Below, piece after piece: positions 24,547 through 50,597 of a DNA stretch of 64,000 bases. The notes beneath the pieces were generated by a model. It ran no database searches, was not told the origin of the DNA, and saw only the letters and a list, made by a program, of their open reading frames with translations. How positions within the stretch are numbered: the first letter of the stretch is position 1; each line of letters starts with the position of its first letter. Origin of the DNA: a virus (taxonomy: Duplodnaviria > Caudoviricetes); the IMG/VR virus record IMGVR_UViG_3300008107_000020. One strand, written 5' to 3'. A program made the translations under genes and the position numbers.

Positions 24547-24577
24547 TAAAAGGGTGGATTTTTTCCACCCTTTTTTT
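24547..24577 (+). terminator. Rho-independent terminator after the MCP gene
   Basis: AAAAGGGTGGA-tttt-TCCACCCTTTT plus T-run. Confidence 0.88.
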
Positions 24578-24630: not shown

Positions 24631-27384
24631 ATGAAAAAATTATTATACATCGCCCCACACCTTTCCACAGGCGGTTTACCACAGTACTTAACTAAAAAAA
24701 TTGAATTACTTAGAGATTCATTTGACATTTATGTTGTTGAATGGTCTAACCACACTGGTGGTGTGTTGGTTGTACAAAGAGATAAAATAACTTCAATGGT
24801 CGCCCCAGATAAATTTTTTACTCTGGAAGAAAATAAAATTCAACTAATTGATATTATTAATAGGGTATCACCAGATATTGTACACTTAGAAGAAATTCCT
24901 GAATATTTCATGGATTTTGAGGTTGCAAAAGAAATTTACAAAAAAGATCGTAACTATGTTATTGTAGAAACTTCTCACGATTCATCATACGATGCCACAC
25001 AAAAGAAATTTTTCCCAGATAAATTTATGTTTGTATCTGATTGGCAAATTAAATTATTTGAATCAATCGATATCCCAAAAGTTTTGGTTGAATACCCTAT
25101 TGAATATAAACAAAGGCCAAATAGAGAAGATGCATTAAAAGACCTTGGTTTAGATCCTAGTAAAAAACACGTATTACACGTTGGTTTATTTACACCAAGA
25201 AAAAATCAAAAAGAATTTTTTGATTACGCAAGATCTTTACCTGAATATGTTTTCCATTCTGTTGGTAATCAAGCTGGCAACTTTGCTCATTACTGGGAAC
25301 CTTTGATGAAAGATAAACCAGAAAATGTTGTTTGGCATGGTGAAAGAAAAGATGTTGACAGGTTTTATCAGGCGATGGATTTATTCCTATTCACATCTAG
25401 AGGTACAGATAATGATAAGGAAACAATGCCTTTGGTTATCCGTGAAGCGATTTCCTGGAATTTACCAATTTTAATTTACAACCTTGGCGTTTATCTTAAT
25501 TATTTCGATAAGTTTGATAATATCAAGTACTTAGATTTTTCTGATTTTAACAAAAATTGTTCTTTAATCAAAGAAGTTTTAGAAAATGGTATTGAATTTC
25601 AACCAAAAGTTAAAGAAATTAACAAAGAAAAAGAAGCTATCATTATTTCAACATATCCAACAACAAAAAGTGTTTTTGATACAACAGTTGAATGTATTTT
25701 AGCGGCTAAAAGAACGGGTAGAAAAGTTATTTTAACATCACATTTACCAGTTTCACCAGATTTACAAAATTTGGTAGATTATTATATCTACGATAAAAAC
25801 AATATTTTAACAAAACATACATTCTACTCCCAAAGTAGATATAGTGAAGCTGATTTCTTTGCTTTTGTTAACTTAAGAGGTGAAGGTAACGATGTTTATC
25901 ACGGCCCAACTTGCTACACAAATTATTATAATGGCGCTGCGTTGGCAAACGAATTGGGTATGGAAAAAGTTTATTTCCTTAACTACGATTATGTTCTAAA
26001 AAATGATGCGTATCTAGATAACATTTCAAATATATTAGATACAAAATCCGCTTATTTTGGTGATATGCCAAACAATCCAGAAGGTCATTCAGTTACCACA
26101 TTTTTTATGGGTATTAGACCGTCTTTTTATTTAAATTCCGTAGAGCCAATATCTTGCGCACAAGATTATGAAAATTTAAGAACAAAATGGGGTTCATTTA
26201 GTAATGGGTACGAAAATATGATGTTTTTTGCCTTCAAAGATAAAATGAACCAAATCGAATTGGTTGGTGAAGAACAGTTTAAAAATGAAGTGGCGACTAA
26301 TTTCCACCATAGAGATTATTCTAGGGTTGAATATTTCACAGTTTTGCCAACAACAGTACCTAACTCGTTTGCTGTTTATTTCCAGGTATCAAATTCAATT
26401 GACAGTAGAATTGTTAATATTAAAATTAATAAGAATGGGTCTTTACTTAAAGAGGAACAAATTACTGTAACAGGTAGAGGTGCTTGGTATAACATGGTTG
26501 GTTATAATTTAGATGAAAACGCTGAATATACCGTTGATTATCAGTCCTTTGATAAGGATACCCAACAATTTATTGAAAGTAAGTTTTTAAGAATTAACAA
26601 TGATTATATCACAAATGTCTTACCGAATAACGGAATGTTTGAATATAAAGGTGATATTAACGGCATCAATTTATTGAGTGATAATGATAGTTCAAAACCT
26701 AAAATTAGAATTGTACATTTAGTTACTGAACCATCAACCAACCCTAAAGAGTTACGTTCAGCTTTTTCTTTAAAAGATTTTGCTAGTAACTTCGACAATG
26801 TTGAATACTATGAAAAAATCAACGAGATCTACAAAGAGTTACCACCAGTTGATACGTGTAATAGACCACATGATGTTGCACCTGAACCAGGGTACTTCAA
26901 ACTATCCCCAGGGCATTACGGCTGTTTCTTGGCACATAAAAACGGTATAACTTTACCAGATAACAACAAATATGATTTCATCTTAGTGTTTGAGGGTGAT
27001 GTCATAATTGATGCACCTTACCAGGAATTGTATGATAATTTAATTAGATGGTCACAACTGGCTAAAGAAGAAAATGTTGATATGGTCGGTTTTGGTAACT
27101 ACTGCGCTGAGAGATATAGTGGTGAGCGTGAGGATTTAATGCTTAATTTAAGTATTTTTGCACCAGCGCAATCTTACTTGATTAATAGAGAAAAATTACC
27201 TACTTTTGTAGAAAGATTTGAAACGTGTAAATGGGATGCGTTTGACTTGTGGATGACCAAAGTTGCCAAACTACACGGTGCAATGGCAAACAAGATTTAT
27301 ACTAAACATTTACCAGGATATTCTATTGTAGATAGAAAAGATAAAAATAAAGACAACGACTACGCAGCAATTTTCACTAATTAA
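24631..27384 (+). CDS. Multi-domain glycosyltransferase (N-terminal GT4, central unknown GT-A-like domain, C-terminal GT25-like domain)
   Basis: N: APHLSTGGLPQY, VGLFTPRKNQ, MDLFLFTS...ETMPLVIREA. Middle: IIISTYP...YFLNYDYV. C: GHYGCFLAH...FILVFEGDV (GT25 G.xGC.xSH...ED-like). Confidence 0.8.
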   Translation: MKKLLYIAPHLSTGGLPQYLTKKIELLRDSFDIYVVEWSNHTGGVLVVQRDKITSMVAPDKFFTLEENKIQLIDIINRVSPDIVHLEEIPEYFMDFEVAKEIYKKDRNYVIVETSHDSSYDATQKKFFPDKFMFVSDWQIKLFESIDIPKVLVEYPIEYKQRPNREDALKDLGLDPSKKHVLHVGLFTPRKNQKEFFDYARSLPEYVFHSVGNQAGNFAHYWEPLMKDKPENVVWHGERKDVDRFYQAMDLFLFTSRGTDNDKETMPLVIREAISWNLPILIYNLGVYLNYFDKFDNIKYLDFSDFNKNCSLIKEVLENGIEFQPKVKEINKEKEAIIISTYPTTKSVFDTTVECILAAKRTGRKVILTSHLPVSPDLQNLVDYYIYDKNNILTKHTFYSQSRYSEADFFAFVNLRGEGNDVYHGPTCYTNYYNGAALANELGMEKVYFLNYDYVLKNDAYLDNISNILDTKSAYFGDMPNNPEGHSVTTFFMGIRPSFYLNSVEPISCAQDYENLRTKWGSFSNGYENMMFFAFKDKMNQIELVGEEQFKNEVATNFHHRDYSRVEYFTVLPTTVPNSFAVYFQVSNSIDSRIVNIKINKNGSLLKEEQITVTGRGAWYNMVGYNLDENAEYTVDYQSFDKDTQQFIESKFLRINNDYITNVLPNNGMFEYKGDINGINLLSDNDSSKPKIRIVHLVTEPSTNPKELRSAFSLKDFASNFDNVEYYEKINEIYKELPPVDTCNRPHDVAPEPGYFKLSPGHYGCFLAHKNGITLPDNNKYDFILVFEGDVIIDAPYQELYDNLIRWSQLAKEENVDMVGFGNYCAERYSGEREDLMLNLSIFAPAQSYLINREKLPTFVERFETCKWDAFDLWMTKVAKLHGAMANKIYTKHLPGYSIVDRKDKNKDNDYAAIFTN

Positions 27385-27977
27385 TGTATTTACACGGGCA
27401 TAAATTAAACACTAAACACCCAGATTTTAGTCTTGGGTGGTGTGAATCGGTATTTAAAGAAATTTGGTTAGATCACGAATACTCAAGATATGGTGTTGAA
27501 GTTGAAAAAGGGGATATTGTTGTTGACTGTGGTGCTAATGTTGGTTTTTTTACTAACTACGCACTAAATTATCGTAAAGCAAAACATGTTTACTCATTTG
27601 AGTGTGATGAAACTTATGTGGAATGTTTAAGACAAAATACAAATGAAAATGTTACCATAACACAAGCATTTGTTTCGGATAGAGATGAAATTGGTCACTA
27701 TAACATAGAGAGAATGTTACATGATTTTGGTTTAACCCACATCGATTTTATTAAAGTTGACATTGAGTGGTGGGAATACCCATTATTAATTAACATGTCA
27801 AATGATACGATGAAAAGAGCGAACAAATGGGTAGTAGAACTACATAGTATATATGATAATTATGATAAAATATTAGATATAATTGAAAAATTTACATTAA
27901 ATGGGTTTGATGTAAATTATGAACAAGTACACAAAGAAACAAACCTAGCATTATTATACGCAAAAAAGAGAATATGA
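27384..27977 (+). CDS. FkbM-family SAM-dependent methyltransferase
   Basis: VVDCGANVGFFT, VYSFEC, IDFIKVDIEWWE, VVELH. Confidence 0.88.
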   Translation: MYLHGHKLNTKHPDFSLGWCESVFKEIWLDHEYSRYGVEVEKGDIVVDCGANVGFFTNYALNYRKAKHVYSFECDETYVECLRQNTNENVTITQAFVSDRDEIGHYNIERMLHDFGLTHIDFIKVDIEWWEYPLLINMSNDTMKRANKWVVELHSIYDNYDKILDIIEKFTLNGFDVNYEQVHKETNLALLYAKKRI

Positions 27978-28924
27978 AAATTTGTCAAGTACATCCTGGA
28001 TGTGGAATACCAGTGCCACCACCTAATTGGGGTGCTGTAGAAAAAATAGTATGGGAATTTACCCAGAATTTAAGATTATTAGGGCATGAGGTTGACATCA
28101 AATATGCAAATGAAATTCAACCAGGTGAATATGATGTTGTTCACGTGCACATGGCCAATTTATGCCATTTTTTACACGATAGAGGTATACCATACATTTA
28201 TCAATTACATGATCACCACGCTTATTACTATGGTAAGGGGTCTTATGTGTTCAACCAAAATAATAGGGCTATTCTCGAGTCACAGGTTTCATTAATGCCA
28301 GGTAGATTTTTAGTACCTTACTTTGAAACAGAAAAAGCTATTTATTTTTCACATGGTGTGAATACCGATTTTTATCACCCTTCAGACATCAGACCTAAAG
28401 AGCATAAACTATTATGTTTAGCTAATAACGGATTAGCTGGTATGGATGGGTACGATAGAAAAGGTTTTGGCTTTGCAATTCAAGCCGCAATGGCAAGAAA
28501 TCTACCGATCACAATTGCTGGTCCAAGAAATAACCAAAATTTCTTTAATGAGAATCCGTGGGTTAATGGGTACGCAAAATTATCAATTGAGTGGGAACCT
28601 AATCAAGATGAATTAGTTAATCTATACCATAGACATACAATTTTTATGCACCCTTCTGAATTAGAAGCTGGCCACCCTAATTTAACTATATTAGAGGCCG
28701 CTGCATGTGGCTTACCAATTAACGGTGCCATTGAGATGGAAACTGATTTTAACGGTATGTGGAGAGCACCTAGAAAGGTTACAGATATTGTACGTGGGTT
28801 AGATGATATTATAGCTAATTACGATTCATACCGTGAAAGAGCTATTCAACACGCTGAGTCTTTATCATGGTACAATAGATCAAAAGAATTATTAGAAGTT
28901 TATAAACAATACGCACAACAATGA
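27974..28924 (+). CDS. GT4-family glycosyltransferase
   Basis: PPPNWGAVEKIV, HGVNTDFY, RKGFGFAI, IFMHPSELEAGHPNLTILEAAACGLP. Confidence 0.88.
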   Translation: MKICQVHPGCGIPVPPPNWGAVEKIVWEFTQNLRLLGHEVDIKYANEIQPGEYDVVHVHMANLCHFLHDRGIPYIYQLHDHHAYYYGKGSYVFNQNNRAILESQVSLMPGRFLVPYFETEKAIYFSHGVNTDFYHPSDIRPKEHKLLCLANNGLAGMDGYDRKGFGFAIQAAMARNLPITIAGPRNNQNFFNENPWVNGYAKLSIEWEPNQDELVNLYHRHTIFMHPSELEAGHPNLTILEAAACGLPINGAIEMETDFNGMWRAPRKVTDIVRGLDDIIANYDSYRERAIQHAESLSWYNRSKELLEVYKQYAQQ

Positions 28925-30546
28925 GGATATTAGGGCTTTCAGCTGGATCACATTCTTGTGGTATAAGCTTAATAGAGAACGGTAAGATAATCTTTTCTTT
29001 AGAAGAAGAAAGGCATACAAGAATAAAAGTTTACAAAGATTTTTATGGCGGTTATTTTAGATACCCACAGTTATCAATGTATGAAGCGGTTAAAAGATTT
29101 AACCTAGATCCAAACTCAGTTGATTATATAACGAGTTATTACCCCAAACATGAGGTTAAAGTATTTTGGGAAAGCTTAGGGTTAGGTCTATTCCCTGAAC
29201 AGAAATTCATATTCATTGATCATCATGATTCACATGCTGGGACCGCTTATTATATGAGCGGTTTTGATGATGACACACTTGTTGTTACCATGGATGCCAG
29301 CGGTGGACAGTATAGTGCAAAATATTTCGTAGGTTCTAATGGTGATTTAGATTATATCGATGGTTTGGATTTAACAAGAAAATCTTTTGGTCATTATTAT
29401 GCCATGTTAACAGAATTTTTAGGTTTTAGAAGACTTAAAGATGAAGGTAAAGTTGTTGGTATGGCCGCACACGGTAGACATGATAGCCTATCATACCAAG
29501 CCTTTAATGAGTGTATTAAAATTGAGGGTATACACACCGATAAAGACCAATCAGACGTACTATTAGGTCAAATTTATGTTGATTTTTATACCAGATATTA
29601 TAAATCATTAGGTTCTAAAGTGTTTTTTGGGACAAAAGCTGACTTAGCATATACAGGGCAATTTGTTTTTGAGGAAAAAATATTACAAGTTTTTAATAAC
29701 TTACATAACATGTACCCAAACATTAAAAAAGTTGCTGTAGCTGGTGGAGTTTTTGCTAATGTAAAATTAAATAAACGCATCAATGAATTATATTGGGTTA
29801 ATGAAATGTTTGTCGCACCCCCAATGGGTGATGAAGGTTGTCCGCTTGGTTGTGCTTTATTGGTACATAAAATGTTTACACCAGGGTTCAAACCATTTAG
29901 ATTAGAAAACATGTTTATGGGTACGGAGTATACTGATACTGAAGTTGGTGAACATTTTTGGGACCAAAATAAATTTTCAAGGGAGATATTCACCCCAGAA
30001 TTGGCAGCAAAATACTTGGCTGAAGGTAAAATTATCGGTATGTTCAACGGAAGGTATGAGCACGGCCCAAGGGCTTTAGGTAATCGTAGTATTATTGGTG
30101 AGGTAACTAACCCAGATACATATGATAAAATTAATAACAAACTACAAAGAAATGATTTCATGCCATTTGCGCCAGCTGTAATGGAAGAACATGCTGATAC
30201 AATTTTTAATGTCACAAAATCAAGATATACAGCTGAGTTTATGACGATGTTATATGATACAAGACCTGAGTGGGCCAATAGAATACCAACAGTTGTTCAT
30301 CCTAAGGATAAAACGGCTAGGATACAAATAGTAACTAAAACAAGCAATCCAACATTCTATAAAGTTTTGGATGAATATAATAAAATAACTGGCGTACCTG
30401 TTCTTTTAAATACATCATTTAATGTACACGAAGAACCAATCGTATGTCACCCAAACGAAGCGTTTAATCATTTACAGAATGACGTTGTTGACTTATTAAT
30501 AATAAATAATTTTATCTACAAAAAATATGAAGGACATCTTAATTAA
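28921..30546 (+). CDS. O-carbamoyltransferase (NodU/CmcH/TobZ family)
   Basis: EEERHTRIK, HHDSHA, DEGKVVGMAAHG, AGGVFANVKLN, PPMGDEG, GPRALGNRS, FMPFAP, ARIQIV, LLNTSFNVHEEPIV. Confidence 0.93.
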   Translation: MRILGLSAGSHSCGISLIENGKIIFSLEEERHTRIKVYKDFYGGYFRYPQLSMYEAVKRFNLDPNSVDYITSYYPKHEVKVFWESLGLGLFPEQKFIFIDHHDSHAGTAYYMSGFDDDTLVVTMDASGGQYSAKYFVGSNGDLDYIDGLDLTRKSFGHYYAMLTEFLGFRRLKDEGKVVGMAAHGRHDSLSYQAFNECIKIEGIHTDKDQSDVLLGQIYVDFYTRYYKSLGSKVFFGTKADLAYTGQFVFEEKILQVFNNLHNMYPNIKKVAVAGGVFANVKLNKRINELYWVNEMFVAPPMGDEGCPLGCALLVHKMFTPGFKPFRLENMFMGTEYTDTEVGEHFWDQNKFSREIFTPELAAKYLAEGKIIGMFNGRYEHGPRALGNRSIIGEVTNPDTYDKINNKLQRNDFMPFAPAVMEEHADTIFNVTKSRYTAEFMTMLYDTRPEWANRIPTVVHPKDKTARIQIVTKTSNPTFYKVLDEYNKITGVPVLLNTSFNVHEEPIVCHPNEAFNHLQNDVVDLLIINNFIYKKYEGHLN

Positions 30547-31798
30547 CGAATACAATAATACTGAAATCTTAGCAAAAGATTACAAACAACCAGCAAACTC
30601 ATTTATAGTACATTTTGTAAATGGTGCTTTATGTGAAATTAAAGGACCGATATCAAAAAAATACAAGGTTGTTTTTTCTGATAATAAAACTGGGCACGTT
30701 CATCACGTATCTGAGATTACAAATAACATGTGGACTAAAAGTGCCATTGAATATTTTATCGAATGGAATATTAAAGTATATGAGTTAGAAACGGAAGAGT
30801 TAGTTTTTGAACACACATACGATTGTAAAGATAAAAGGGTTTACATCCATTTAGATAGCTCTGCTGTTGGTGATACAATGGCTTGGTTTCCGTATGCGGA
30901 TGAGTTCAGAAAAAAACACGGGTGTAAAGTTTTGTGCTCAACATTCCATAATGAATGGTTTGAGGGTATGTATCCAGAAATTGAATTTGTTAAACCTGGT
31001 ACACCTGTTATTGATTTATACGCAATGTATAAGATTGGTTGGTTTTACGATAATAAAGAAGTTGTTAAAACCAAAATCCCGATTGATTTTAAACAGCACC
31101 CTTTACAAGAAACTAGTTCATGTATTCTAGGGTTGGATTATGAAGAGGTTAAACCAAAGGTTTTTGTACCAGAAGAGCCTAGTAGAATTGAAGGTAAATA
31201 TGTTATTATTGCACCTCACGCATCTGCACACGCTAAATATTGGAATCATCCAGGCGGATGGCAAGGTGTTATTGATCACTTAAATGCTAGTGGTTATAAG
31301 GTTGTTATGATTACATCAGAAAAACTGGGTGATGCTTGGCATGATTCAAAACTTGGTGGTACATTAAGAAATGTTATTGATAAAACTGGTGGTCATATTG
31401 ATCTGGTTGACAGAATGATTGACATTAAACACGCATCGGCTTTTATTGGTTTAGGTAGTGGTTTAAGTTGGTTATCTTGGGCTATCGGAACACCTACAGT
31501 TCTTATCTCTGGATTTAGTTACCCTTTATCTGAGTTTGCTGACTGTGAAAGGATTTTTAACCCAAATGTTTGTAACGGATGTTTTAATAGACATTGGTTA
31601 AACCCAGGGGATTGGGAATGGTGCCCAGATCACAAAGATACACCAAGACACTTTGAATGTTCTAAAACTATTGAAACTCAAACTGTTATAGACGCTGTTA
31701 ATAGACTTTTAACCAAAAAAGAAGAGCCAGTTCAAGAGGTCATTGAAGAAAATTTAGAAAAAAAAGATAAAAAAAGTTTTTTTGGTAAGTTTTTTTAG
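30527..31798 (+). CDS. Aah/TibC-type autotransporter O-heptosyltransferase homolog (BAHT family; protein Ser O-glycosylation)
   Basis: N-terminal beta-barrel F.NGA..I.G; SSAVGDTMAWFPYADEFRKKH; FIGLGSGLSWLSWAIGTPTVLISGFS; iron-finger C-x2-C-x13-C-x11-C (CNGC...WCP...FEC). Confidence 0.88.
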   Translation: MKDILINEYNNTEILAKDYKQPANSFIVHFVNGALCEIKGPISKKYKVVFSDNKTGHVHHVSEITNNMWTKSAIEYFIEWNIKVYELETEELVFEHTYDCKDKRVYIHLDSSAVGDTMAWFPYADEFRKKHGCKVLCSTFHNEWFEGMYPEIEFVKPGTPVIDLYAMYKIGWFYDNKEVVKTKIPIDFKQHPLQETSSCILGLDYEEVKPKVFVPEEPSRIEGKYVIIAPHASAHAKYWNHPGGWQGVIDHLNASGYKVVMITSEKLGDAWHDSKLGGTLRNVIDKTGGHIDLVDRMIDIKHASAFIGLGSGLSWLSWAIGTPTVLISGFSYPLSEFADCERIFNPNVCNGCFNRHWLNPGDWEWCPDHKDTPRHFECSKTIETQTVIDAVNRLLTKKEEPVQEVIEENLEKKDKKSFFGKFF

Positions 31799-31834
31799 GT
31801 ATATTTGTTGCTATAACATATAATAGCAACAACT

Positions 31835-32410
31835 ATGTTTTATAAATATGACGAAAAACAACTCAAATTTGTTAAGAACAAATTGGGTATAAGGATAGCA
31901 TTAGGAACCACCATTTTATTGATGGTTGGTTCCTTTTTTATTGGTAGGTATACCAGCGGTACACTCACTAAATATGAAAAAGAGTATATTCATATTAATT
32001 GGGAAAAAGAACGTAACGCTATTAATAAAGAAAAACTAGCTAAAGAACTAAAAGAATCTGGTATTAAATTCCCACACATTATAATGGCCCAGGCTATTAT
32101 TGAATCTGGTAATTTTAAGAGCGAACTTTATAAATCAAATAATAATCTATTTGGTATGACAATACCTGGTTCAAGAAATACCACCAATATTGCTGTTGAT
32201 GGTAAATATGCTAAATATAACACATGGCAAAGGTGTGTGCTTGATATGGCTTATCTGCAACAATATAATTTAAAGGGTATTAGATTAGGTAATGATGAGG
32301 ATTACTTTATATATTTGAAAAATAGTAATTACGCTGAAGCTCCGAATTATATAGCCGCTTTAAAAAACGTAATAGATAAAGAAAATTTAAAATCTTATTT
32401 TAATGAGTAA
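31835..32410 (+). CDS. GH73 glucosaminidase-like peptidoglycan hydrolase with N-terminal membrane anchor
   Basis: TM segment IALGTTILLMVGSFFIG; MAQAIIESG, NNLFGM, YAKY, YAEAPNY. Confidence 0.75.
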   Translation: MFYKYDEKQLKFVKNKLGIRIALGTTILLMVGSFFIGRYTSGTLTKYEKEYIHINWEKERNAINKEKLAKELKESGIKFPHIIMAQAIIESGNFKSELYKSNNNLFGMTIPGSRNTTNIAVDGKYAKYNTWQRCVLDMAYLQQYNLKGIRLGNDEDYFIYLKNSNYAEAPNYIAALKNVIDKENLKSYFNE

Positions 32411-33236
32411 AGAAAAATTAAAAGATATTCTTTCAACACCAACTTATTGTGGGCAAGAACAATATCTTATAGCAAAAATAACCAAATATCTTAGTGAAAG
32501 TAATCTGGATTATGTTATTGATGAACACGGTAATATCTTCGTAACAAAGGGTATTGCCGAACATTATCCATGTGTTGTTGCACACACTGATTCTGTGCAT
32601 AGAATTGTTGATATGGATATCTTACATCACCCAGATGAAGAAGACATTATATATGCGGTTGAAAAAGGCACAAATAAGCCCACTGGCTGCGGTGGGGATA
32701 ATAAAGCGGGTGTTTATGTATGTTTGGAGTTACTTGAGCGTGTAGAGGTCTTAAAAGCGGCTTTTTTCGTATCTGAGGAATATGGTTGTTTCGGGTCAAC
32801 ACTAGCAGATGAAGTTTTTTTTCAGGATGTTGGTTATGCTTTACAATTTGATGCACCTGAAAACGATTGGGTTACACACTATTGTAATGGTGTTAAGTTA
32901 TTTGACGAAAATGGTGATTTTTATAAAACAATAAAGCCAATATTGGAAGATTACATGGGTGATTATTCTTTAGGTAGACACCCATATACTGATGTTAGTA
33001 TTCTTGGTGCGTTTTATGATTTTTCATGCATCAACTATTCAGTAGGTTATTATAACATGCATTCAAAGATGGAGTATGTTAGTATTAGTTTTGCACAACA
33101 AGCCAGAAATATCGCTTTAGAGATCATTACATCCCTGGGTAATATAAAGTACACATTTGTTGATGAAAACGTCAGAATTGATAAGGAAAAGGCTAAAGAA
33201 AGGGCTTTAAAATCACTTAACGGTTTAAGGAAATAA
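32403..33236 (+). CDS. Zn-metallopeptidase (M20/M28/M42 clan MH)
   Basis: VAHTDSVH, GGDNKAG, SEEYGCFGS, QFDAP, GYYNMHS. Confidence 0.82.
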   Translation: MSKEKLKDILSTPTYCGQEQYLIAKITKYLSESNLDYVIDEHGNIFVTKGIAEHYPCVVAHTDSVHRIVDMDILHHPDEEDIIYAVEKGTNKPTGCGGDNKAGVYVCLELLERVEVLKAAFFVSEEYGCFGSTLADEVFFQDVGYALQFDAPENDWVTHYCNGVKLFDENGDFYKTIKPILEDYMGDYSLGRHPYTDVSILGAFYDFSCINYSVGYYNMHSKMEYVSISFAQQARNIALEIITSLGNIKYTFVDENVRIDKEKAKERALKSLNGLRK

Positions 33237-33262
33237 AAAAAGGGGCGCTAGGCCCCTTTCTT
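33236..33262. terminator. Bidirectional terminator between the peptidase and fibre genes
   Basis: AAAGGGGC-gctag-GCCCCTTT with A/T flanks. Confidence 0.8.
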
Positions 33263-33268
33263 ATTTTA

Positions 33269-39500: not shown

Positions 39501-42500
39501 TAAACCTGAGGATCCAGCTGTTCCTGAAGTTGCACTAGACCCTGAAGAACCTGAACTACCAGATGAACTACTTAAAGCTGAAGAACCAACTGTACCAGTA
39601 GTACCTGATGTACCACTTGATGCGGATGTTCCTGAAGAACCACTATTTGCAGCTAAACCTGAAGTACCATTTGTACCAGTTGATCCGCTTGATCCTGAAG
39701 AACCTGATGTTCCCGAAGATTTACTTAATGCAGAAGCACCGTCTGTACCAGCTGAACCACTTGATCCTGAAGAACCAGAAGTTCCTGAAGTTGCTGATGT
39801 TCCCGCTGAACCTGAGCTACCGCTTAACTGAGATAATCCAGATGTACCGACCGTACCTGAGGTCGCTGAAGAACCACTTGTAGCTGAACTACCTGAGTTA
39901 GCTGAAGCACCATTTGTACCGTTTGAACCAGTCGATCCAGATGAACCTGATGTTCCAGAACTTCTGCTTAAACCAGACTGGCCATCCGTACCTGAAGTAC
40001 CAGTTGAACCACTTGATCCAGATGTACCTGAAGTATCACTTAAAGCAGATTGACCATCCGTACCTGAAGTACCTGATGTACCAGCCGTTGCTGAAGAACC
40101 TGATAATCTACTTAAACCTGAGGTTCCAACCGTACCTGAAGTAGCTGAAGAACCTGAAGTAGCTGAGCTACCACTATTCGCTGATTGGCCACTTGTACCA
40201 GCAGAACCAGAAGACCCACTTGTACCAGATGTTGCTGAAGAGCCAGCTGAACCCGCACTACCACTTAATTGTGATAAACCACTTGTACCAGCTGTACCTG
40301 AAGTTGCTGAACTACCAGAAGTAGCTGAAGAACCTGAGTTTGCTGATGCACCGTTTGTACCGTTTGTACCAGTTGAACCTGAAGAACCTGAAGTTCCAGA
40401 ACTTCTACTTAATGCTGAAGCACCATCTGTACCAGAAGAACCTGAACTACCAGAAGAACCTGAAGTTCCACTTGTAGCCGAAGTACCCGCACTACCTGAA
40501 GATCCAGATAATTGAGATAAACCGTTTGTACCAGCGGTTCCTGAAGTAGCGGAGCTACCTGATGTTGCTGAAGAACCACTATTTGCGCTTAAACCAGATG
40601 TACCGTTTGTTCCTGTACTACCTGAAGATGCTGATGTACCAGCCGATCCTGAAGACGCTGATAAACCAGATGACCCTGAAGTTCCTGAGGTTGCAGAAGA
40701 ACCTGCACTACCAGCTGAACCGCTTAACGCTGAACTACCTGATGTTCCAGAAGTTGCTGAAGAACCCGAACTACCAGCAGAACCCGAAAGTTGACTTAAA
40801 CCTGATGTACCAGCTGTTCCTGATGTAGCTGAAGTCCCAGCAGAACCTGAGCTACCACTATTTGCACTTGCACCATTTGTACCGTTTGTACCTGTAGACC
40901 CACTAGAACCTGATGTACCCGAAGATCTACTCAAAGCAGACGCACCGTCCGTACCATTTGTTCCAGAAGAACCTGATGTACCCGATGAACCTGAAGATCT
41001 ACTTAAACCCGATGTACCGTTTGTTCCTGAAGAACCGCTTGATGCACTCGATCCGCTTAATTGTGATAAACCTGAGTTACCAGCGGTACCTGAAGTACCA
41101 GTTGTACCTGAGCTAGCTGAAGAACCAGCAGACCCTGAAGAACCGCTTAATTGTGACAAACCTGATGTACCTGCGGTACCGCTTGTTGCGGAACTACCAG
41201 AAGTTGCTGAAGAACCTGAATTTGCGGATGCACCATTTGTACCGTTTGTACCTGTAGACCCACTAGAACCTGATGTACCCGAAGATCTACTCAATGCCGA
41301 TGCCCCATCAGTACCTGCTGATCCTGAACTACCTGAACTACCTGAAGTTCCAGAAGTTGCTGAAGTTCCAGCCGATCCTGAAGAACCTGATAATTGAGAT
41401 AAACCATTTGTACCAGCTGTACCTGAAGTTGCAGAAGAACCACTTGATCCTGAAGATCCAGAGTTTGCAGAAGCACCAACAGTACCGCTTGTACCACTTG
41501 ATCCTGAAGAACCTGAAGTTCCAGCAGAACCACTATTATTTGAAGAACCTGAAGTTCCAGTTGTACCAGTTGTACCTGAAGAAGCGCTTGTACCAGATGA
41601 ACCAGAGTTAGCTGAAGCACCATTTGTACCGCTTGTACCAGTTGTACCGCTTGTTGCAGAAGAACCTGAAGTTGCGCTTAAACCACTATTACCTGCATTA
41701 CCTGAAGTACCGTTTGTACCAGTTGATCCGCTTGATCCTGAAGAACCAGAAGTTCCTGAAGATTTACTTAATGCAGAAGCACCGTCTGTACCAGCTGAAC
41801 CTGAAGATCCACTTGATCCAGATGTACCTGAAGTAGCTGAAGTTCCAGCAGAACCCGATGAACCACTCAATTGAGACAAACCAGAAGTACCAGCTGTGCC
41901 TGAGGTTGCGGATGAACCAGAAGTTGCTGAAGACCCTGAATTTGCGGATGCACCATTTGTACCAGCTGATCCTGAAGATCCACTTGAACCTGATGTACCA
42001 CTTGATTTACTTAATGCCGATTGACCATCTGTACCTGATGTACCAGTTGAACCGCTTGAACCAGACGTTCCTGAAGTATCTGATGTAGCTGATTGTCCAT
42101 CCGTACCTGAAGTACCAGACGTTCCAGCTGTTGCTGAAGAACCAGACAATCTTGATAAACCTGATGTACCAACTGTTCCTGAAGTTGCAGATGAACCTGA
42201 AGTTGCTGAAGAACCACTATTTGCTGATTGACCACTTGTACCAGCAGAACCTGAAGATCCTGAAGATCCTGATGTACCACTAGTTGCTGAAGAACCAGCG
42301 GATCCAGCACTACCGCTTAATTGTGATAAACCACTTGTACCAGCTGTACCTGAAGTAGCGGAAGAACCTGATGTTGCTGAACTACCAGAGTTTGCAGAAG
42401 CACCATTTGTACCCGCAGTTCCAGTTGATCCTGATGAACCAGAGGTACCACTTGATTTACTTAAAGCGGATGCTCCATCAGTACCAGCCGATCCTGAAGA

Positions 42501-45500
42501 CCCGCTTGATCCAGAAGTTCCTGAAGTTGCTGATGTACCAGCGGATCCACTTGACCCACTCAATTGTGACAACCCTGATGTACCAGCGGTTCCTGAGGTA
42601 GCTGAACTACCTGAAGTTGCGGATGAACCACTATTTGCGGCTAAACCTGAAGTACCATTAGAACCTGTAGAACCAGAAGATGCTGATGTACCAGAAGATG
42701 CTGATAATGCACTTAAACCTGAAGAACCTGCGGTTCCTGACGTTGCTGAAGAACCTGAACTACCAGCAGAACTGCTTAACGCTGAACTACCAGAGGTACC
42801 TGTTGTACCACTTGTTGCGGAACTACCGCTTGTCGCAGAAGAACCGCTATTTGCAGCTAAACCTGAAGTACCATTTGTACCAGTAGAACCTGAAGATCCA
42901 CTTGAACCAGATGTACCTGAAGATTTACTTAATGCTGACGCACCATCAGTACCCGCACTACCTGAAGAACCAGAAGAACCTGATGTTCCTGAAGTCGCAG
43001 ATGTACCCGCTGAACCAGAAGAACCACTTAATTGAGACAATCCTGATGTACCAACTGTACCTGAAGTTGCGGATGAACCAGAAGAAGCTGAAGTTCCTGA
43101 AGAAGCTGAAGCCCCACTAGAACCAGCTGAACCAGTTGACCCACTTGTTCCTGAGGTTGCGGATGAACCCGCAGAACCTGAAGAACCACTATTAGCTGAA
43201 GAACCAACTGTACCAGTAGTACCTGATGTACCACTTGATGCGCTTGTTCCTGATGAACCTGAATTTGAACTTAATCCTGAAGTACCATTTGTACCTGAAG
43301 TTGCTGAAGATCCGCTTGACGCTGATGTCCCTGAAGACGCTGATGCTCCCGAAGAACCGTTAGAACCTGTAGAACCAGAGGTACCACTTGTTGCTGAACT
43401 ACCAGAAGACGCTGATAAACCAGATGAACCTGCGGTTCCTGAAGTTGCTGAAGATCCTGATGAAGCTGAACTACCAGAATTAGCTGATAAACCTGAGGTA
43501 CCATTTGTACCTGAAGTTGCTGAAGAACCAGCTGTACCACTTGTTGCTGAAGACGCTGAAGCTCCTGATGAACCACTTGTTCCTGTAGAACCAGCTGTAC
43601 CGCTTGTTGCTGAACTACCAGAAGATGCTGACAACCCACTTGAACCAGCTGAGCCAGAAGTTGCGGATGATCCTGATGTAGCAGAGCTACCACTATTTGC
43701 ACTCAACCCTGATGTACCATTTGTTCCACTTGTAGCTGAACTACCAGAAGAAGCGGATGTACCTGAAGAAGCTGAAGCACCTGAAGCACCAGCTGTACCG
43801 CTTGAACCAGAGGTACCTGAAGTTGCAGAAGAACCACTTGAAGCACTTAAACCTGAAGAACCAGCTGTACCTGAAGTAGCGGAGCTACCTGAAGTCGCTG
43901 AGGATCCGCTTAATGCGCTTAAACCACTTGTACCATTTGTTCCTGAAGTTGCGGATGAACCAGAAGATGCTGATGTACCTGAAGAAGCTGAAGCTCCTGA
44001 TGACCCTACTGAACCTGAAGAACCTGATGTTCCTGACGTAGCAGAACTACCAGAACTTGCACTCAATCCTGAAGAACCTGCGGTTCCTGAAGTTGCTGAG
44101 GATCCTGATGTGGCAGAGCTACCACTATTTGAAGATAGACCTGACGTACCAGCTGTTCCTGAAGTAGCGGAGCTACCTGAAGAACCTGATGAACCAGAAC
44201 TATTACTATTTCCACTCGAACCTGCGGTTCCTGAAGAAGCTGAACTTCCTGAAGAACCCGATGTACCACTAGTTGCAGATGACCCACTTGTAGCGGATGA
44301 TCCAGAATTAGCAGCTAAACCTGAAGTACCATTTGTACCTGAAGTTGCTGAAGATCCGCTTGACGCTGATGTCCCTGAAGATGCGCTTAAACCTGAAGAA
44401 CCAGCTGATCCAGCTGAACCTGATGTTCCTGACGTAGCAGAACTACCAGAAGATGCGCTTAAACCTGAACTACCTGATGTACCGCTTGTAGCAGAGCTAC
44501 CTGAGGTTGCAGAAGAACCTGAATTAGAACTCAACCCTGATGTACCATTTGTTCCTGAAGTTGCGGATGAACCAGAAGATGCTGATGTACCTGAAGAAGC
44601 TGAAGCTCCTGATGAACCAGCGGAACCACTTGTTCCCGAAGTACCAGAAGATGCTGAACTACCAGAAGATGCACTTAAACCTGAAGAACCAGCTGTACCT
44701 GAAGTTGCAGAAGAACCAGAGGAAGCTGATGACCCACTATTTGAGGCTAAACCTGAAGTACCATTTGTTCCACTTGTAGCTGAACTACCAGAAGAAGCTG
44801 ATGTACCAGAAGAAGCTGAAGCCCCTGAAGAACCTGATGTACCAGATGATCCTGAAGTAGCGGAAGTTCCTGAAGAACCCGCTGAACCAGAGCTACCACT
44901 ATTTGCGGCTAAACCAGAAGTACCATTTGTACCTGAAGTTGCGGAAGAACCAGAAGAAGCTGAAGTTCCTGAAGAAGCTGATGCTCCCGAAGAACCGTTA
45001 GAACCTGTAGAACCAGATGTTCCACTTGTTGCTGAAGATCCAGAAGAAGAACTTAAACCTGAAGAACCAACTGTTCCTGAGGTTGCGGATGAACCTGATG
45101 TTCCTGAAGAACCAGAGTTACTAGATAAACCGCCAGTACCATTTGTACCCGTAGAACCGCTTGAACCAGATGTTGCTGAAATAGCAGAAATACCATCAGC
45201 ACCATCAACACCGCTTGAACCAGATGTACCTGAAGAACCCGAAGAACCTGATGTTTTACTTGAACCAGCTAAACCGCTTGTACCTGTCGTACCTGAAGTC
45301 GCAGATGTACCTGAAGTTGCAGAAGAACCACTATTTGAAGATAATCCTGAAGTACCGTTTGTTCCTGAAGTTGCTGAAGATCCGCTTGATGCAGATGTTC
45401 CTGATGTTGAAGAAACACCGCTTGATCCAGCTGTACCAGAAGTTGCTGAAGAACCTGAGGTTGCTGAACTACCAGAAGATGCAGATAAACCCGAAGATCC

Positions 45501-48500
45501 TGATGTACCACTTGTAGCAGAACTACCTGAGGTTGCAGAAGAACCACTATTTGAAGATAAACCCGAAGTACCGTTTGTTCCTGAAGTTGCAGAAGAACCA
45601 GATGATGCAGACGTACCTGAAGTTGCTGAAGCACCTGAAGAACCAGCGCTACCTGTTGATCCTGATGTTCCTGATGTAGCACTTGATCCAGCTGAACCAG
45701 AAGACGCACTTAAACCAGAAGTACCAACTGTACCAGAAGTTGCTGAAGAACCTGAAGAAGCTGAAGCGCCAGAATTACCACCAGTTCCTGAAGTTCCTGA
45801 AGAACCACTTGAACCAGATGAGAATGATAATCTACTTTGACCAGCAACACCAGTTGTACCATTTGTACCAGAAGAACCAGAAGAACCTGAAGTTTCACTT
45901 AAACCACTGTTTGAACTAGCACCATTTGTACCGCTAGAACCTGAGGTTGCAGAAGAACCTGAGGTTGCGCTTGAACCACTATTTGCGGCTAAACCAGAAG
46001 TACCGATTGTACCTGAAGTTGCAGACGAACCTGAAGATGCTGCTGAACCTGATGACCCACTTTCACCACTTGAACCATTAGAACCTGATGTTCCTGAAGA
46101 ACCAGCTGTTCCTGAAGAGGCTGAGTCGCCAGAACTTCCTGATGTTCCAGTAGAGCCTGAAGCACCACTTGAACCAGATGTTCCAGTAGAACCGTTATCA
46201 CCAGAAGAACCGTTTGTTCCTGAAGAACCAGAAGCGCCTGATTCACCATTTAAACCATTTATACCTGAAGAACCTGAAGATCCAGTTGACCCTGAAGACC
46301 CACTTTCACCACTTTCACCTGAAGTACCAAAACTACCACCATCACCAGATGTACCATCGCTACCTGTAGAACCAGATTCACCCGATTGACCAGATGTCCC
46401 AAATGAGCCATCATTACCCGAAGATCCATCGCTACCTGTAGAACCAGATTCACCACTTATTCCTGAAGTTCCTGAAGAACCGTTATCACCGCTTGTACCA
46501 TCCGATCCTGTACTACCACTTTCACCGCTTATTCCTGATGTACCGTTAGAACCTTCGTTTCCTGATGTACCATCTGATCCAGTTGAACCTGATTCACCAC
46601 TTATTCCTGAAGTTCCTGAAGAACCGTTATCACCGCTTGTACCATTTGAACCAGTTGACCCAGAGTCGCCACTTACACCCGATGTACCATTAGAACCATC
46701 ATTACCTGATGTACCATCTGAACCAGTTGAACCGCTTTCACCTGATAAACCACTTGTACCGTTAGATCCGTTATTACCTGATGTGCCATCACTACCCGTG
46801 CTACCACTTTCACCTGATACACCAGAAGTTCCACTTGAACCATTATCACCAGAAGAACCATCTGAACCAGTTGATCCCGATTCTCCACTTATACCAGAGG
46901 TTCCGTTGGAGCCATCATCACCTGAAGAACCGTTAGTTCCTGAAGAACCTGAAGCTCCGCTTTCACCATTTAAACCATTTATACCTGAAGAACCTGAAGA
47001 TCCAGTTGATCCCGAAGACCCACTTTCGCCAGATTGGCCAGATGTTCCAAATGAACCATCATTACCTGAAGAACCATCTGATCCAGAGGATCCAGACTCA
47101 CCTGATATACCAGATGTTCCAAATGAACCATCATTACCTGAAGATCCATCGCTACCTGTGGAACCAGATTCACCCGATTGACCAGATGTACCGTAAGACC
47201 CATCAGCCCCACTTGATCCATCTGACCCAGTTGATCCAGACTCACCACTTATTCCCGAAGTCCCTGAAGATCCGTCATTACCTGATGTGCCATCACTACC
47301 AGTTGAACCTGATTCTCCACTTATTCCTGAAGTTCCATTTGAACCATTATCACCGCTACTACCATCACTACCAGTTGATCCAGACTCACCACTTATTCCT
47401 GAAGTCCCATTAGATCCGTCATTACCTGAAGATCCGTCTGAACCAGTTGAACCACTTTCACCTGATTGACCTGAAGTTCCGTTGGAACCATCGTTACCTG
47501 AAGACCCATCTGAACCAGTAGACCCAGATTCACCACTTATACCAGAGGTTCCAAAACTACCGTTAGCTCCTGAAGAACCGTCTGAACCAGTTGAACCTGA
47601 TTCACCACTTATACCAGAGGTTCCGTTAGAACCGTTATCACCAGAAGAACCGTTAGTTCCTGAAGAACCTGAAGCTCCGCTTTCACCATTTAAACCATTT
47701 ATACCTGAAGAACCTGAAGATCCAGTTGATCCTGAGGATCCCGATTCACCACTTTCACCTGAAGTACCAAAACTACCGTCAGCTCCTGAAGAACCATCAC
47801 TACCCGTGCTACCACTTTCACCTGATTGACCAGATGTTCCTGAAGAACCGTCATTACCTGAAGATCCGTCTGAACCTGTGCTACCACTTTCACCGCTTAT
47901 CCCTGATGTTCCAAATGAACCATCCGCTCCTGAAGAACCATCTGACCCAGTTGATCCAGACTCACCACTTATTCCTGAAGTACCATTAGATCCGTCATTA
48001 CCAGATGTACCATCTGATCCAGTAGACCCAGATTCACCTGATTGGCCAGAGGTTCCAAATGAACCGTCAGCCCCACTTGATCCATCGGATCCTGAAGACC
48101 CAGATTCACCTGATTGGCCAGAGGTTCCAAATGAACCGTCAGCCCCACTTGATCCATCGGATCCTGTAGAACCAGATTCACCTGATTGGCCAGAAGTACC
48201 AAAAGATCCATCATTACCTGAAGAACCTGAAGATCCAGTTGATCCCGATTCTCCACTTATTCCTGAAGTTCCATTAGATCCGTCATTACCTGAAGATCCG
48301 TCTGAACCTGTGCTACCACTTTCACCACTTATTCCTGAAGTCCCATTTGAGCCATTATCGCCTGATGTACCATCTGAACCAGTTGATCCTGACTCGCCAG
48401 ATTGGCCAGAAGTACCAAAAGATCCATCATTACCTGAAGACCCATCTGATCCAGTAGACCCAGATTCACCCGATTGACCAGAGGTTCCAAATGAACCATC

Positions 48501-50597
48501 ATTACCTGAAGACCCATCTGAACCTGTGCTACCGCTTTCACCCGATTGACCAGAAGTACCATTTGATCCGTCATTACCTGAAGAACCATTGGATCCGTTT
48601 GATCCCGATTCACCACTTATTCCTGAAGTTCCATCAACACCATCAACACCATCAACACCATTTGTACCAGAAGTACCACTTTCACCTGATGTACCAGATT
48701 CACCCGATGAACCACTTTCACCAGATTGGCCAGATGTACCGTTAGAACCATCCGCTCCTGAAGAACCATCTGAACCAGTAGACCCAGATTCACCACTTAT
48801 ACCAGAGGTTCCTGAAGAACCGTCATTACCACTACTACCATCACTACCAGTTGAACCAGATTCCCCTGAAGTCCCGTTAACGCCTGTTGTACCAGAATCA
48901 CCGTCCGAACCGTTAGTTCCTGAAGAACCTGAAGCTCCGCTTTCACCATTTAAACCATTTATACCTGAAGAACCTGAAGACCCAGTTGATCCTGAAGACC
49001 CACTTTCGCCAGATTCACCTGAAGTTCCATTTGAACCATTATCACCACTACTACCATCACTACCTGTACTACCACTTTCTCCACTTACCCCTGAAGTTCC
49101 TGAAGAACCATCATTACCTGATGATCCATCTGATCCTGTACTACCGCTTTCACCACTTATACCTGAAGTTCCGTTGGAACCATCGTTACCGCTTTCACCT
49201 GATGTACCATTACTGCCTGATTCACCAGAAATACCTGAAGTACCAAAACTACCATCATTACCACTTGACCCATCTGATCCTGTTGATCCCGATTCACCAC
49301 TTATACCAGAGGTTCCGTTAGAACCACTTTCTCCACTTATTCCTGAAGTTCCTGAAGAACCATCATTACCACTAGATCCGTCAGACCCTGTTGAACCTGA
49401 TTCACCAGAAATACCTGAAGTACCAAAACTACCGTCAGCTCCTGAAGAACCATCTGATCCTGTTGACCCAGATTCACCAGAAATACCAGAAGTTCCATTG
49501 GAACCATCGGCACCACTTTCACCTGAAGTACCAGTTGACCCTGATTCACCTGAAACACCTGAAGTACCATTAGAACCATCGTTACCGCTTATCCCACTTG
49601 TGCCATCAACACCATCAACACCATCAATACCATTTGTACCAGAAGTACCAGATTGACCACTCGTACCATCATTTCCTGTGCTACCAGATTCACCTGATAT
49701 ACCTGATGTTCCATTTGAACCATCCGCTCCTGAAGAACCATCTGAACCAGTACTACCAGATTCACCACTTACTCCTGAAGTCCCTGAAGATCCGTCATTA
49801 CCTGATGTGCCATCACTACCAGTTGAACCTGATTCACCACTTATACCAGAGGTTCCGTTGGAACCATCTGCTCCTGAAGAACCGTCAGAGCCAGTTGAAC
49901 CACTTTCTCCACTTATTCCTGAAGTTCCTGAAGAACCATCATTACCACTTTCACCTGATGTGCCATTACTACCACTTTCTCCACTTAAACCTGAGGTTCC
50001 GTTACTACCATCATTACCCGATGTACCATCTGATCCTGTTGACCCAGATTCGCCAGACATCCCCGAAGTTCCGTTGGAGCCATCGGCACCGCTTTCACCT
50101 GAAGTACCAGTGCTACCTGATTCACCACTTATCCCTGAAGTTCCTGAAGAACCATCATTACCACTACTACCATCACTACCATTACTACCTGATTCTCCAG
50201 AAACACCAGATGTACCATCAGAACCACTCAAACCCGAATAACCTGAAGTACCAGCTGTACCAGAAGTACCTGTTAATAAAGGTGAATATGAATATTCACC
50301 AGTAGCTGCATTAAACGACACAAAATAGTTCGGTGAACTATTTTCGGTCATTCCTGTAACAAATAACTCATTTAAAATATAAACACCCTTAAGATCTTGG
50401 GTGTTTTCCCACTGTCCAGTGGTATCGTTCCAAACTAAAATGTCCCCTTCATTGGGGCCACTAATTACAACGTCAGATAGATCATCTATTCCAAGATTTT
50501 CTATAACGTCTTTTATATTTTGGAAGTTAGCATCTAATTCCGCATAGGATAGTGCCCTTCCTAGATCGTCTCTAAGATAAATTGTTACTGTTGCCAT
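33269..50597 (-). CDS. Giant Ser/Thr-rich Gly-X-X repeat virion fibre, about 5,780 aa if repaired; present here as 37548..50597 plus a +1-frame continuation to 33269
   Basis: Fibre-type N-terminus (LR...G.AL.Y.ELD.NF; DDLSDVVI...GDILVWN...W.N), over 5,400 aa of triplet repeats, C-terminal S74 chaperone. Repeat register is continuous across the break at 37563-65. Confidence 0.85.
33700..50270 (-). repeat. Degenerate 9-nt (triplet-residue) tandem repeat array with higher-order 72-nt and 720-nt units
   Basis: G-X-X periodicity. The GINGLNGES marker recurs at + positions 46251, 46971, 47691 (exact 720-nt spacing) and 48951. Confidence 0.95.

Follow-up and report, generated by a model that had tools for sequence, protein, structure and literature searches.

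Candidate virion-protein O-glycosylation module of the TibC/Aah type beside a giant collagen-like phage fibre

The closest described relatives of the system considered here are the enzyme-adhesin pairs TibC-TibA and Aah-AIDA-I of E. coli, in which a glycosyltransferase of the BAHT family (bacterial autotransporter heptosyltransferases; TIGR04414; PDB 4RAP/4RB4) adds single heptoses to its substrate, an autotransporter adhesin with strand-loop-strand repeats; ADP-heptose as donor and an iron-dependent dodecamer are further traits of the family. For TibC, Asp110 has been described as the catalytic base and Thr226, Lys230, Arg286 and Trp305 as donor contacts, together with a four-Cys iron finger (PMC4358343). 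The residue glycosylated by TibC and Aah is Ser, and the reaction takes place in the cytoplasm. TibC acts on plain peptides; at its mapped sites, QNSGG and NTSAA, the residue after the modified Ser is Gly or Ala. Substrate and enzyme genes are neighbours in the characterised family, as with Aah followed by AIDA-I in one of the loci studied below (L283). Here we analyse a stretch of 64,000 nucleotides from a virus of the Caudoviricetes (IMG/VR record IMGVR_UViG_3300008107_000020), referred to as a whole as the window, in which a five-gene operon (positions 24631-31798) with a BAHT homologue as its last gene runs towards the convergent open reading frames (ORFs) of a giant collagen-like fibre (33269-50597; Table 1).

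Glycans on collagen-like proteins are found in several other settings. BclA of the Bacillus anthracis exosporium and the cuticle collagen of Riftia have collagen-like Gly-X-Thr repeats with O-linked glycans, and the Thr-linked sugar of Riftia stabilises a triple helix that is poor in hydroxyproline. Mimivirus combines collagen-like or fibril surface proteins with virus-encoded glycosylation, for example by a hydroxylase/glucosyltransferase acting on Lys. Among phages, the glycosyltransferases (GTs) of mycobacteriophages decorate their own structural proteins, the targets being the C-termini of capsid and tail-tube subunits according to the account of Freeman et al. (2023) given in PMC12619734. 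The window's system differs from mycobacteriophage, BclA-type and giant-virus glycosylation in enzyme, acceptor and scale. Whereas the mycobacteriophage enzymes are, on the same account, not of the BAHT type, the candidate acceptor here is a giant collagen-like fibre with up to about 1,950 Ser; BclA and Riftia involve other glycosyltransferases and organisms, and in the phage fibre Ser dominates and Pro is all but absent; Mimivirus is a eukaryotic virus with different enzymes and no BAHT. With TibC and Aah the locus shares the enzyme family, the Asp, Lys, Arg and Trp residues, the four-Cys iron finger, the position of the enzyme gene beside a long, repetitive, Ser-rich candidate substrate and, as at the known acceptor sites, Ser with Gly or Ala after it. 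It departs from them in being virus-encoded, in having a collagen-like phage fibre rather than a beta-helical autotransporter as candidate acceptor, in the extending and tailoring enzymes that accompany the phage BAHT, and in belonging to a sister clade with a fully supported split from the clade that contains Aah. A literature search brought up no account of a BAHT in phages or of phage collagen-like fibres that are glycosylated, which agrees with the initial annotation of this DNA, whose author knew of no such phage system; papers on related aquatic phages assign their GT genes to DNA or O-antigen modification.

We think it likely, judging from gene content and its conservation among phages, that the operon is a virion-protein O-glycosylation module that acts on the collagen-like fibre. 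From the enzyme families we infer a pathway in which the BAHT would prime Ser hydroxyls of the fibre in G/A-S/T-S-G/A triplets in the cytoplasm of the infected cell, probably with heptose from ADP-heptose. The GT4 enzyme and the three-domain GT917 would then extend the glycan, and the FkbM methyltransferase and the NodU-type carbamoyltransferase would cap sugar hydroxyls. The S74 chaperone would trimerise the fibre, presumably as a triple helix, and the fibre would be mounted on the virion, the outcome being a long, heavily glycosylated, mucin-like virion appendage.

The assignment of the priming enzyme follows from its match to TIGR04414, which it reaches with 326.1 bits (cut-off 200; aa 36-394 on model positions 20-374), and from an alignment with TibC (PDB 4RAP; E 6e-61, residues 66-397) in which the C-x2-C, WCP and FEC motifs all fall into register. 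D110, K230, R286 and W305 are identical, T226 corresponds to Ser, and all four iron-finger Cys (C339, C342, C358 and C370) are conserved, so that the first description of the protein as an Aah/TibC homologue with a 4-Cys iron finger is borne out. Across 17 clade members there is no variation in the catalytic Asp, the Lys, the Trp or the four Cys, and the iron finger is kept in a 35%-identical GT4-BAHT fusion from another phage lineage (lineage C below). Since the contact residues are kept, the donor sugar is probably ADP-heptose. A total of 4,992 clusters of BAHT relatives match at E <= 1e-10, and all 120 of the 90%-identity clusters among the matches listed are at least about 61% identical to the enzyme of the window.

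The BAHT also has secondary NCBIfam matches to RfaQ and to heptosyltransferases I and III, and GT4, GT9 and GT25 are classic families of lipopolysaccharide (LPS) synthesis. The operon might therefore remodel a glycan of the host envelope (LPS, capsule or other), for instance to block superinfection, its position beside the fibre reflecting a shared hypervariable region for host recognition; FkbM and NodU-type enzymes decorate free glycans too, and GT genes in the host-recognition cluster of pelagimyophages have been read as serving O-chain modification (PMC7029224). We regard this as unlikely, one reason being that the BAHT scores 326 against a cut-off of 200 on a protein-glycosylating family and stays far below the cut-offs for LPS heptosyltransferases. 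DNA modification was rejected as a role of the operon, as no nucleotide- or DNA-modifying enzyme is found among the family matches of its products.

The five genes begin behind the terminator-like hairpin that follows the major capsid protein (MCP) gene, and adjacent stop and start codons overlap by 1, 4, 4 and 20 nt, which fits translational coupling. Each of the gene families initially named for this operon has its Pfam or NCBIfam match where it had been placed. The description of the first product as a multi-GT likewise stands: GT917 consists of an N-terminal GT-B/GT4-like domain, an alpha/beta middle domain with a beta-sandwich and a C-terminal GT25-like domain, and its AlphaFold model (mean pLDDT 76.9, above 90 in the middle domain) shows three catalytic-looking domains plus the beta-sandwich. 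Foldseek matches the N-terminal domain to the GT4 enzymes BshA and WaaG. For the whole protein the top Foldseek match is human COLGALT1 (E 3.6e-9 over about 620 alignment columns, with TM scores of only 0.15-0.25), and aa 700-917 match GT25 (PF01755) weakly (E 1.4e-3; 18.9 bits, under the cut-off of 24). COLGALT1 (GLT25D1; PDB 9EVK), a GT25 enzyme of collagen-type substrates, is about 10% identical to GT917, which has an extra GT-B domain; moreover, COLGALT1 acts on hydroxylysine, whereas the phage fibre has 20 Lys only. A profile search of PDB sequences with GT917 gave only a chance match, and we treat the GT25/COLGALT1 resemblance as only a lead. Among the tailoring enzymes, the FkbM protein passes TIGR01444 (51.5 bits, cut-off 37.7), and the carbamoyltransferase has both Carbam_trans domains but is no NodU equivalog, scoring 137.7 bits where the cut-off is 1000.

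The candidate acceptor is encoded by two overlapping minus-strand ORFs. Joined, they give a fibre of about 5,770 aa with 1,950 Ser, 1,536 Gly, 748 Thr, 20 Lys, 8 Pro and no Cys. The initial annotation had described a single giant, convergent, Ser/Gly/Thr-rich fibre gene; its repeats, composition and S74 end stood up, whereas the gene is split into two ORFs and its repeats are collagen-like Gly-X-Y. Behind the attachment domain, 461 triplets run without interruption and with Gly at every first position. In the ~4,000 aa that follow, 67-86% of the first positions are Gly and most of the others Ala (67-77% Gly and 15-31% Ala in the N-terminal ORF past the 461 triplets), and neither ORF ever slips out of the triplet register. 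The C-terminal ORF carries imperfect Gly/Ala-X-Ser triplets and then the globular end. The Pro/Hyp-rich X and Y positions that are a trait of collagen (PF01391) are missing, with 8 Pro in about 5,770 aa. Of the fibre's Ser, 1,207 precede Gly or Ala, and [GA][ST]S[GA] motifs occur 651 and 129 times in the two fibre ORFs; no other ORF of the 64-kb window has three or more. The proposal that thousands of Ser/Thr are primed has to be read as an upper bound, since TibC modifies Ser and not Thr. The window ORFs include no autotransporter, as originally stated, and the adjacent autotransporter substrate that serves the family as a contextual criterion is accordingly absent. A triple helix rises by about 0.29 nm per residue; if all of the repeat region were triple helix, which is speculative, it would be about 1.6 micrometres long.

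Table 1. Positions of the operon, the fibre and neighbouring features in the window, with examples of small tract-bearing ORFs at bacterial loci
Feature	Position	Strand	Evidence or remark
TATTTATA sites	5599, 13784, 17749, 50626(-), 54158, 55634, 58841(-)		
Large terminase	13807-15615		
Portal	15877-17733		
Prohead protease	20405-21118		
MCP	22942-24525		Pfam Gp23 E 1.7e-74
Terminator-like hairpin and T-run after MCP, upstream operon boundary	24548-24574	+	11-bp stem, 5 GC pairs
GT917, 917-aa three-part glycosyltransferase	24631-27384	+	Pfam Glycos_transf_1, aa 165-318, E 1.4e-11
FkbM-family methyltransferase, candidate sugar O-methyltransferase	27384-27977	+	Pfam Methyltransf_21 E 6.8e-10
GT4-type glycosyltransferase, candidate glycan extender	27974-28924	+	Pfam Glycos_transf_1 29.9 bits (cut-off 26.4)
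NodU/CmcH-family carbamoyltransferase, candidate sugar O-carbamoyltransferase	28921-30546	+	Carbam_trans_C E 3.3e-59, Carbam_trans_N E 1.7e-33
BAHT, candidate priming protein O-glycosyltransferase	30527-31798	+	TIGR04414, TibC alignment
Glucosaminidase-domain protein, probable cell-wall hydrolase	31835-32410	+	Pfam Glucosaminidase E 1.1e-18
277-aa peptidase-like protein	32403-33236	+	PHROG phrog_4191 'peptidase' E 7.7e-39; weak PepT/M42 similarity
Bidirectional hairpin terminator between convergent operon and fibre gene	33236-33262	both strands	11-bp stem
Fibre C-terminal ORF, 1,464 aa, first ~35 residues out-of-frame read-in	33269-37663	-	Pfam Collagen E 3.7e-111
S74 intramolecular chaperone	33383-33541	-	Peptidase_S74 (PF13884) E 1.9e-13, aa 1375-1427 of C-terminal ORF
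Non-repeat C-terminal globular domain of fibre	from 33724 down	-	
Frame break between fibre ORFs	37536-37570	-	frame change at ~37563-37570, 'ggt act tca a tca ggt tta'
Fibre N-terminal ORF, 4,349 aa	37548-50597	-	Pfam Collagen E 0
Uninterrupted Gly-X-Y run, 461 triplets, aa 110-1492	46122-50270	-	Gly register 100%
Fibre attachment domain, N-terminal ~109 aa	50271-50597	-	
ClpB/ClpC-type double AAA+ ATPase	50685-53150	-	Pfam AAA_2 E 1.1e-66, AAA_lid_9, ClpB_D2-small
Small GTS-tract ORFs, examples at bacterial loci	L207 11220-11930, L221 11172-12065, L246 8548-8937, L208 11214-11579	-	

Most probably the two fibre ORFs are separated by an assembly join, since no Logan contig from four runs bridges 37536-37563 (in runs X1, X5 and X6 the contigs end at 37536/37543 and resume at 37563) and the depth bin of 51 bases over it (37514-37564) has an extreme repeat-word depth. 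The DNA repeats of the fibre are only 60-84% identical, so that the region is no trivially collapsed array. On this ground, and because the fibre ORF is continuous in relatives, with lengths from 2,700 to over 3,400 aa (2,721 aa in a complete one, at least 3,463 and at least 3,488 aa in two open-ended ones) and the fibre occurs in many metagenomes, the idea that it is a repeat artefact was rejected. Fibre length varies: in L004, whose BAHT is 89% identical to that of the window, the fibre has 495 aa only, with short (G-S/T-S)n stretches. Parts of the fibre are covered by contigs from RNA libraries, which is no demonstration of transcription. Two relatives have two adjacent or overlapping fibre ORFs as well (L012, 11406-14117 and 14104-17415, minus strand; L027, 3-2885 and 2911-6336, plus strand); possible causes are assembly breaks that recur in the repeats, two fibre genes in tandem, and frameshifts.

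The linkage of module and fibre was followed through 234 IMG/VR loci that encode BAHT relatives, among which we distinguish lineage A (L001-L012) and a second myophage lineage, B (L013-L080); a search that started from the S74 end of the fibre added lineage C (L182, L183 and L186). Lineage A has the gene order of the window, that is MCP, module and convergent fibre. In lineage B, with BAHTs 62-68% identical to that of the window, the order is fibre, GT917-like gene, GT4, sometimes FkbM, BAHT, tail sheath, tube and baseplate hub; in one large contig of this lineage (G001) the fibre spans about 9 kb (66.7-76 kb). In lineage C a fibre of at least 3,463 aa, almost pure (G-S/T-S)n, stands with a GT4-BAHT fusion, 35-38% identical, that has an FkbM-like gene adjacent to it. 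Among GenBank phages BAHTs are found in 4 of 50,697 records. The cultured Microcystis phage Mel-JY01 (L200, PP395634.1) encodes a GT4-x-BAHT fusion of 1,226 aa, annotated 'methyltransferase FkbM', directly after a Ser-rich 'structural protein', with a (GTS-GSS-GTD/R)n collagen-like ORF further upstream. In the 735-kb phage LR756501 an ORF of 699 aa that contains (G-S/T-S)n stretches has as neighbours a GT917-like gene and a GT4-BAHT fusion. Five or more phage lineages, differing in gene order, thus have BAHT, GT4 and GT917-like genes next to (Gly-Ser/Thr-Ser)n fibres. GT4 copies 57-97% identical to that of the window adjoin the BAHT in all loci of lineages A and B, and GT4 is fused to BAHT in four lineages (L182, Mel-JY01, LR756501 and L089). 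GT917-like genes adjoin BAHT in lineages A and B, including a form of about 663 aa without the GT25-like end, and FkbM-like genes are present in the modules of lineages B and C too. The carbamoyltransferase is confined to the window's own lineage, being present in L001-L012 and absent from lineage B.

The collagen-like ORF of Mel-JY01 (2-3049, plus strand; at least 1,016 aa) runs off the start of the record. GenBank has Pro-rich 'hypothetical proteins' on the minus strand there (1-651 and 739-2298) and annotates only the last 177 plus-strand codons, so the region is very probably annotated on the wrong strand.

The co-occurrence of BAHT homologues with S74 fibres bearing GTS motifs had been set beforehand as the test of the proposal. 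Over the examined loci of at least 12 kb, a BAHT and a GTS-motif ORF occur together in 57, a BAHT alone in 18, the motif alone in none and neither in 46, and most of the 18 loci with BAHT only end on the fibre side. Starting from the S74 end of fibres gives the same picture, as every Pro-free Ser/Thr collagen fibre found has a BAHT within 10 kb, and none of more than a dozen non-collagen S74 fibres has one within that distance. Starting from the MCP, loci with at least 83% MCP identity carry the module and one at 76% carries a GT4-BAHT fusion; in about 40 loci at 54-67% MCP identity neither module nor collagen ORF lies downstream of the MCP. Five large MCP-related contigs (32-64% complete) gave no BAHT match, and a scan of three contigs for (G-S/T-S/T)4-coding DNA found none in G007 and G008. 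In the third, G005, a relative at 66% MCP identity, a GTS fibre stands at the 0.1-4.9 kb edge of a 190-kb contig that has no BAHT; with the fibre at the contig edge the module may be off the contig, and the case is uninformative.

These gene orders also bear on the question of which virion protein would be modified. The operon stands directly after the MCP in the window and directly before sheath and tube in lineage B, and mycobacteriophage GTs glycosylate capsid and tail tube (Freeman et al. 2023, as far as cited in PMC12619734), so that one might suppose a mycobacteriophage-like module for another virion protein (capsid, decoration, sheath or tube) with the fibre as a bystander within a structural block. 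This is distinctly unlikely in our judgement. The MCP is adjacent in lineage A only and the sheath in lineage B only, neither is seen in L182, L186 or LR756501, and in Mel-JY01 about 17 kb separate the fusion gene from the capsid gene downstream of it; relatives at 54-67% MCP identity lack the module downstream of the MCP, and within the window clusters of Ser-Gly/Ala motifs are found in the fibre alone.

The enzyme cassette shifts with the chemistry of the fibre. L195, which is syntenic with L186, has a Pro-containing collagen, and its BAHT cassette is replaced by genes for a P4H-like 2OG oxygenase, an FkbM-like protein and a radical-SAM/SPASM protein. This shift argues against remodelling of the host envelope, as does the fibre being the sole constant neighbour of the enzymes across five lineages with different gene orders.

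In lineage B the MCP is 35-46% identical to that of the window as against 62-68% for the BAHT, so the module is better conserved than the capsid. This is consistent with horizontal transfer of the module as a unit, and hence also with fibre and GTs that travel together as a mobile cassette and have no enzyme-substrate relation: the fibre might bind a soluble or cell-bound glycan made by the GTs, or the BAHT might put a sugar other than heptose on a GTS-tract protein of the host, and the heptose-pathway genes are indeed incomplete in related phage records. We hold such an arrangement to be very unlikely, since GT4-BAHT fusions and the family-wide rule of enzyme next to substrate favour direct modification, and since the Ser-rich tract itself is what all the neighbours, phage and bacterial, have in common.

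Bacterial members of the family place the phage enzymes in a wider context. Scanning prokaryote genomes, one per species, with a profile yielded 502 BAHT relatives, of which 80 were examined. A giant autotransporter-like ORF, rich in G/S/T and 1,400-3,300 aa long, lies near the BAHT gene at 17 bacterial loci, mostly starting just downstream of it; these loci belong to Bradyrhizobium, Paraburkholderia, Acetobacteraceae and Lentisphaerota. At 18 others the neighbour is a small ORF (120-330 aa) that carries a (G-T-S)n tract and lies mostly 80-160 bp from the BAHT gene; they belong to Methylomicrobium and other Methylococcales, to Polaromonas/Burkholderiales and to other Proteobacteria. The small proteins that were inspected start with a signal peptide or a lipoprotein signal, and their tracts reach about 40 repeats (examples in Table 1); these small secreted proteins are candidates for a bacterial substrate of the same chemistry.

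A quick maximum-likelihood tree, built from 95 BAHT domains, has its deepest split (SH-aLRT 100) between an autotransporter-linked and a GTS-linked clade. All 17 enzymes with a neighbour of the autotransporter type fall in the former, and none with a GTS-type neighbour does; all 38 with a GTS-type neighbour (20 fibres and 18 small proteins) fall in the latter, together with every phage enzyme and with no case of the autotransporter type. The BAHT of the window falls in the GTS-linked clade and not in that of Aah, and when the tree was rebuilt, again quickly, without four long branches, the Aah beside AIDA-I (L283, from a Salmonella plasmid) joined the autotransporter clade. That the bacterial members of the clade stand beside small GTS-tract proteins, with signal peptides in those inspected, and not in LPS clusters is a further point against an envelope glycan as the target.

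Several observations weigh against glycosylation of the fibre by this module. The support for it is comparative in kind, and the GT4, GT9 and GT25 families build LPS too. The fibre ORF is broken in the assembly, which makes the total of about 5,770 aa a provisional length. Across the wider BAHT clade the Arg that contacts adenine varies. A search for gmhA/SIS genes in four related phage records found none, and these records have only RfaE-like kinase and cytidylyltransferase-like genes with sub-threshold matches; a supply of ADP-heptose for the predicted glycosylation is therefore presumed. The initial annotation would have been contradicted by BAHTs that regularly occur without such fibres; they do not do so as a regular pattern, and there are exceptions. 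The BAHT of the huge phage LR756504 stands alone, no fibre lying within 15 kb to either side of it, L035 and L049 carry a beta-roll, UspA1-like fibre with S74 instead of a GTS collagen, and L045 carries a Pro/Gln/Tyr collagen with PA14 and has a P4H-like gene in its module. Finally, the counted loci are phylogenetically non-independent, so that their weight lies in the at least five lineages and the different gene orders. Glycosylation by the phage of its own fibre, as first proposed, is nevertheless supported by the comparative evidence taken together.

The deviating fibres of L035 (2-2293) and L049 (1-4290), both on the plus strand and of lineage B, consist of 'GGGxxNTASGxxSTV' beta-roll repeats with UspA1_rep and LbR_Ice_bind matches. 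Both loci have an extra ORF of 303 aa without a Pfam match (L049 5348-6256, L035 3351-4259). In the tree the BAHT of L049 and that of L032, a locus with a GTS collagen fibre, lie on branches of 0.027 and 0.032.

A wider reading, which we put forward as a tentative possibility, is that the TibC/Aah family has a distinct and widespread branch with a specialisation for (Gly-Ser/Thr-Ser)n tracts, and that aquatic phages use it, together with extending and capping enzymes, to make Pro-free collagen-like fibres, possibly micrometre-long, into mucin-like glycoproteins. The O-glycans might then be needed for the stability of the triple helix and for host range or environmental stickiness, and the same chemistry might act on the small secreted GTS-tract proteins of methanotrophs and Burkholderiales. 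If the module does glycosylate the fibre, many aquatic phages would modify their own fibres by a dedicated modular pathway, with an enzyme family known only from pathogen adhesins. Protein O-heptosylation would gain a new class of acceptor and probably a new subfamily, the stability of Pro-free collagen-like fibres would find an explanation, and virion glycan coats would become a new variable in phage ecology (adsorption, host range, grazing and aggregation). With a carrier in culture, Mel-JY01, fibre glycosylation is directly testable.

The phage itself is T4-like, with a low GC content (~31%) and an MCP of the Gp23 type; the closest MCPs among GenBank phages, those of Mel-JY01 and of a 484-kb uncultured phage, are only 32-43% identical. 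It is probably a jumbo phage, since contigs of 253-259 kb carry BAHT proteins near-identical to its own and a related contig of 154 kb is rated 52% complete. The metagenomes that contain the fibre stretch come from lake, river and other freshwater habitats. The two best BAHT matches in prokaryote 'genomes' (62% and 54% identical) are on short contigs with the whole phage module that were binned with metagenome-assembled genomes of Flavobacteriales, which is a weak hint to the host.

Between module and fibre, the gene of the glucosaminidase-domain protein is 54-86% identical in relatives, compared with about 90% for the flanking genes, and is missing from L004, L010 and L012; it is probably a variable neighbour outside the glycosylation system. 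The peptidase-like protein is kept between BAHT and fibre end in lineage A (76-93% identical in L001-L010). On the other side, the ClpB/ClpC-type ATPase gene lies upstream of the fibre on the same strand, with 88 nt from its end to the fibre start, and L004 and L012 retain it at that place, also with a fibre of only 495 aa. As a speculation, it is a candidate chaperone for handling the fibre.

About 20 kb from the module, an upstream operon of genes of unknown function includes a GT2-family glycosyltransferase (4055-4885, plus strand). P4H-like 2OG-Fe(II) oxygenases (PF13640) are found near collagen-like fibres in the window (54176-54844, plus strand), in L045 (6499-7092) and in L195 (11434-12042); in the latter two the gene lies inside the fibre cassette and the collagen contains Pro, whereas the fibre of the window is almost Pro-free. 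The motif TATTTATA is not enriched over the window as a whole (11 matches, 7.8 expected); it resembles a T4-type late promoter and stands 18-38 nt before several gene starts, among them those of terminase and fibre but not that of the GT operon.

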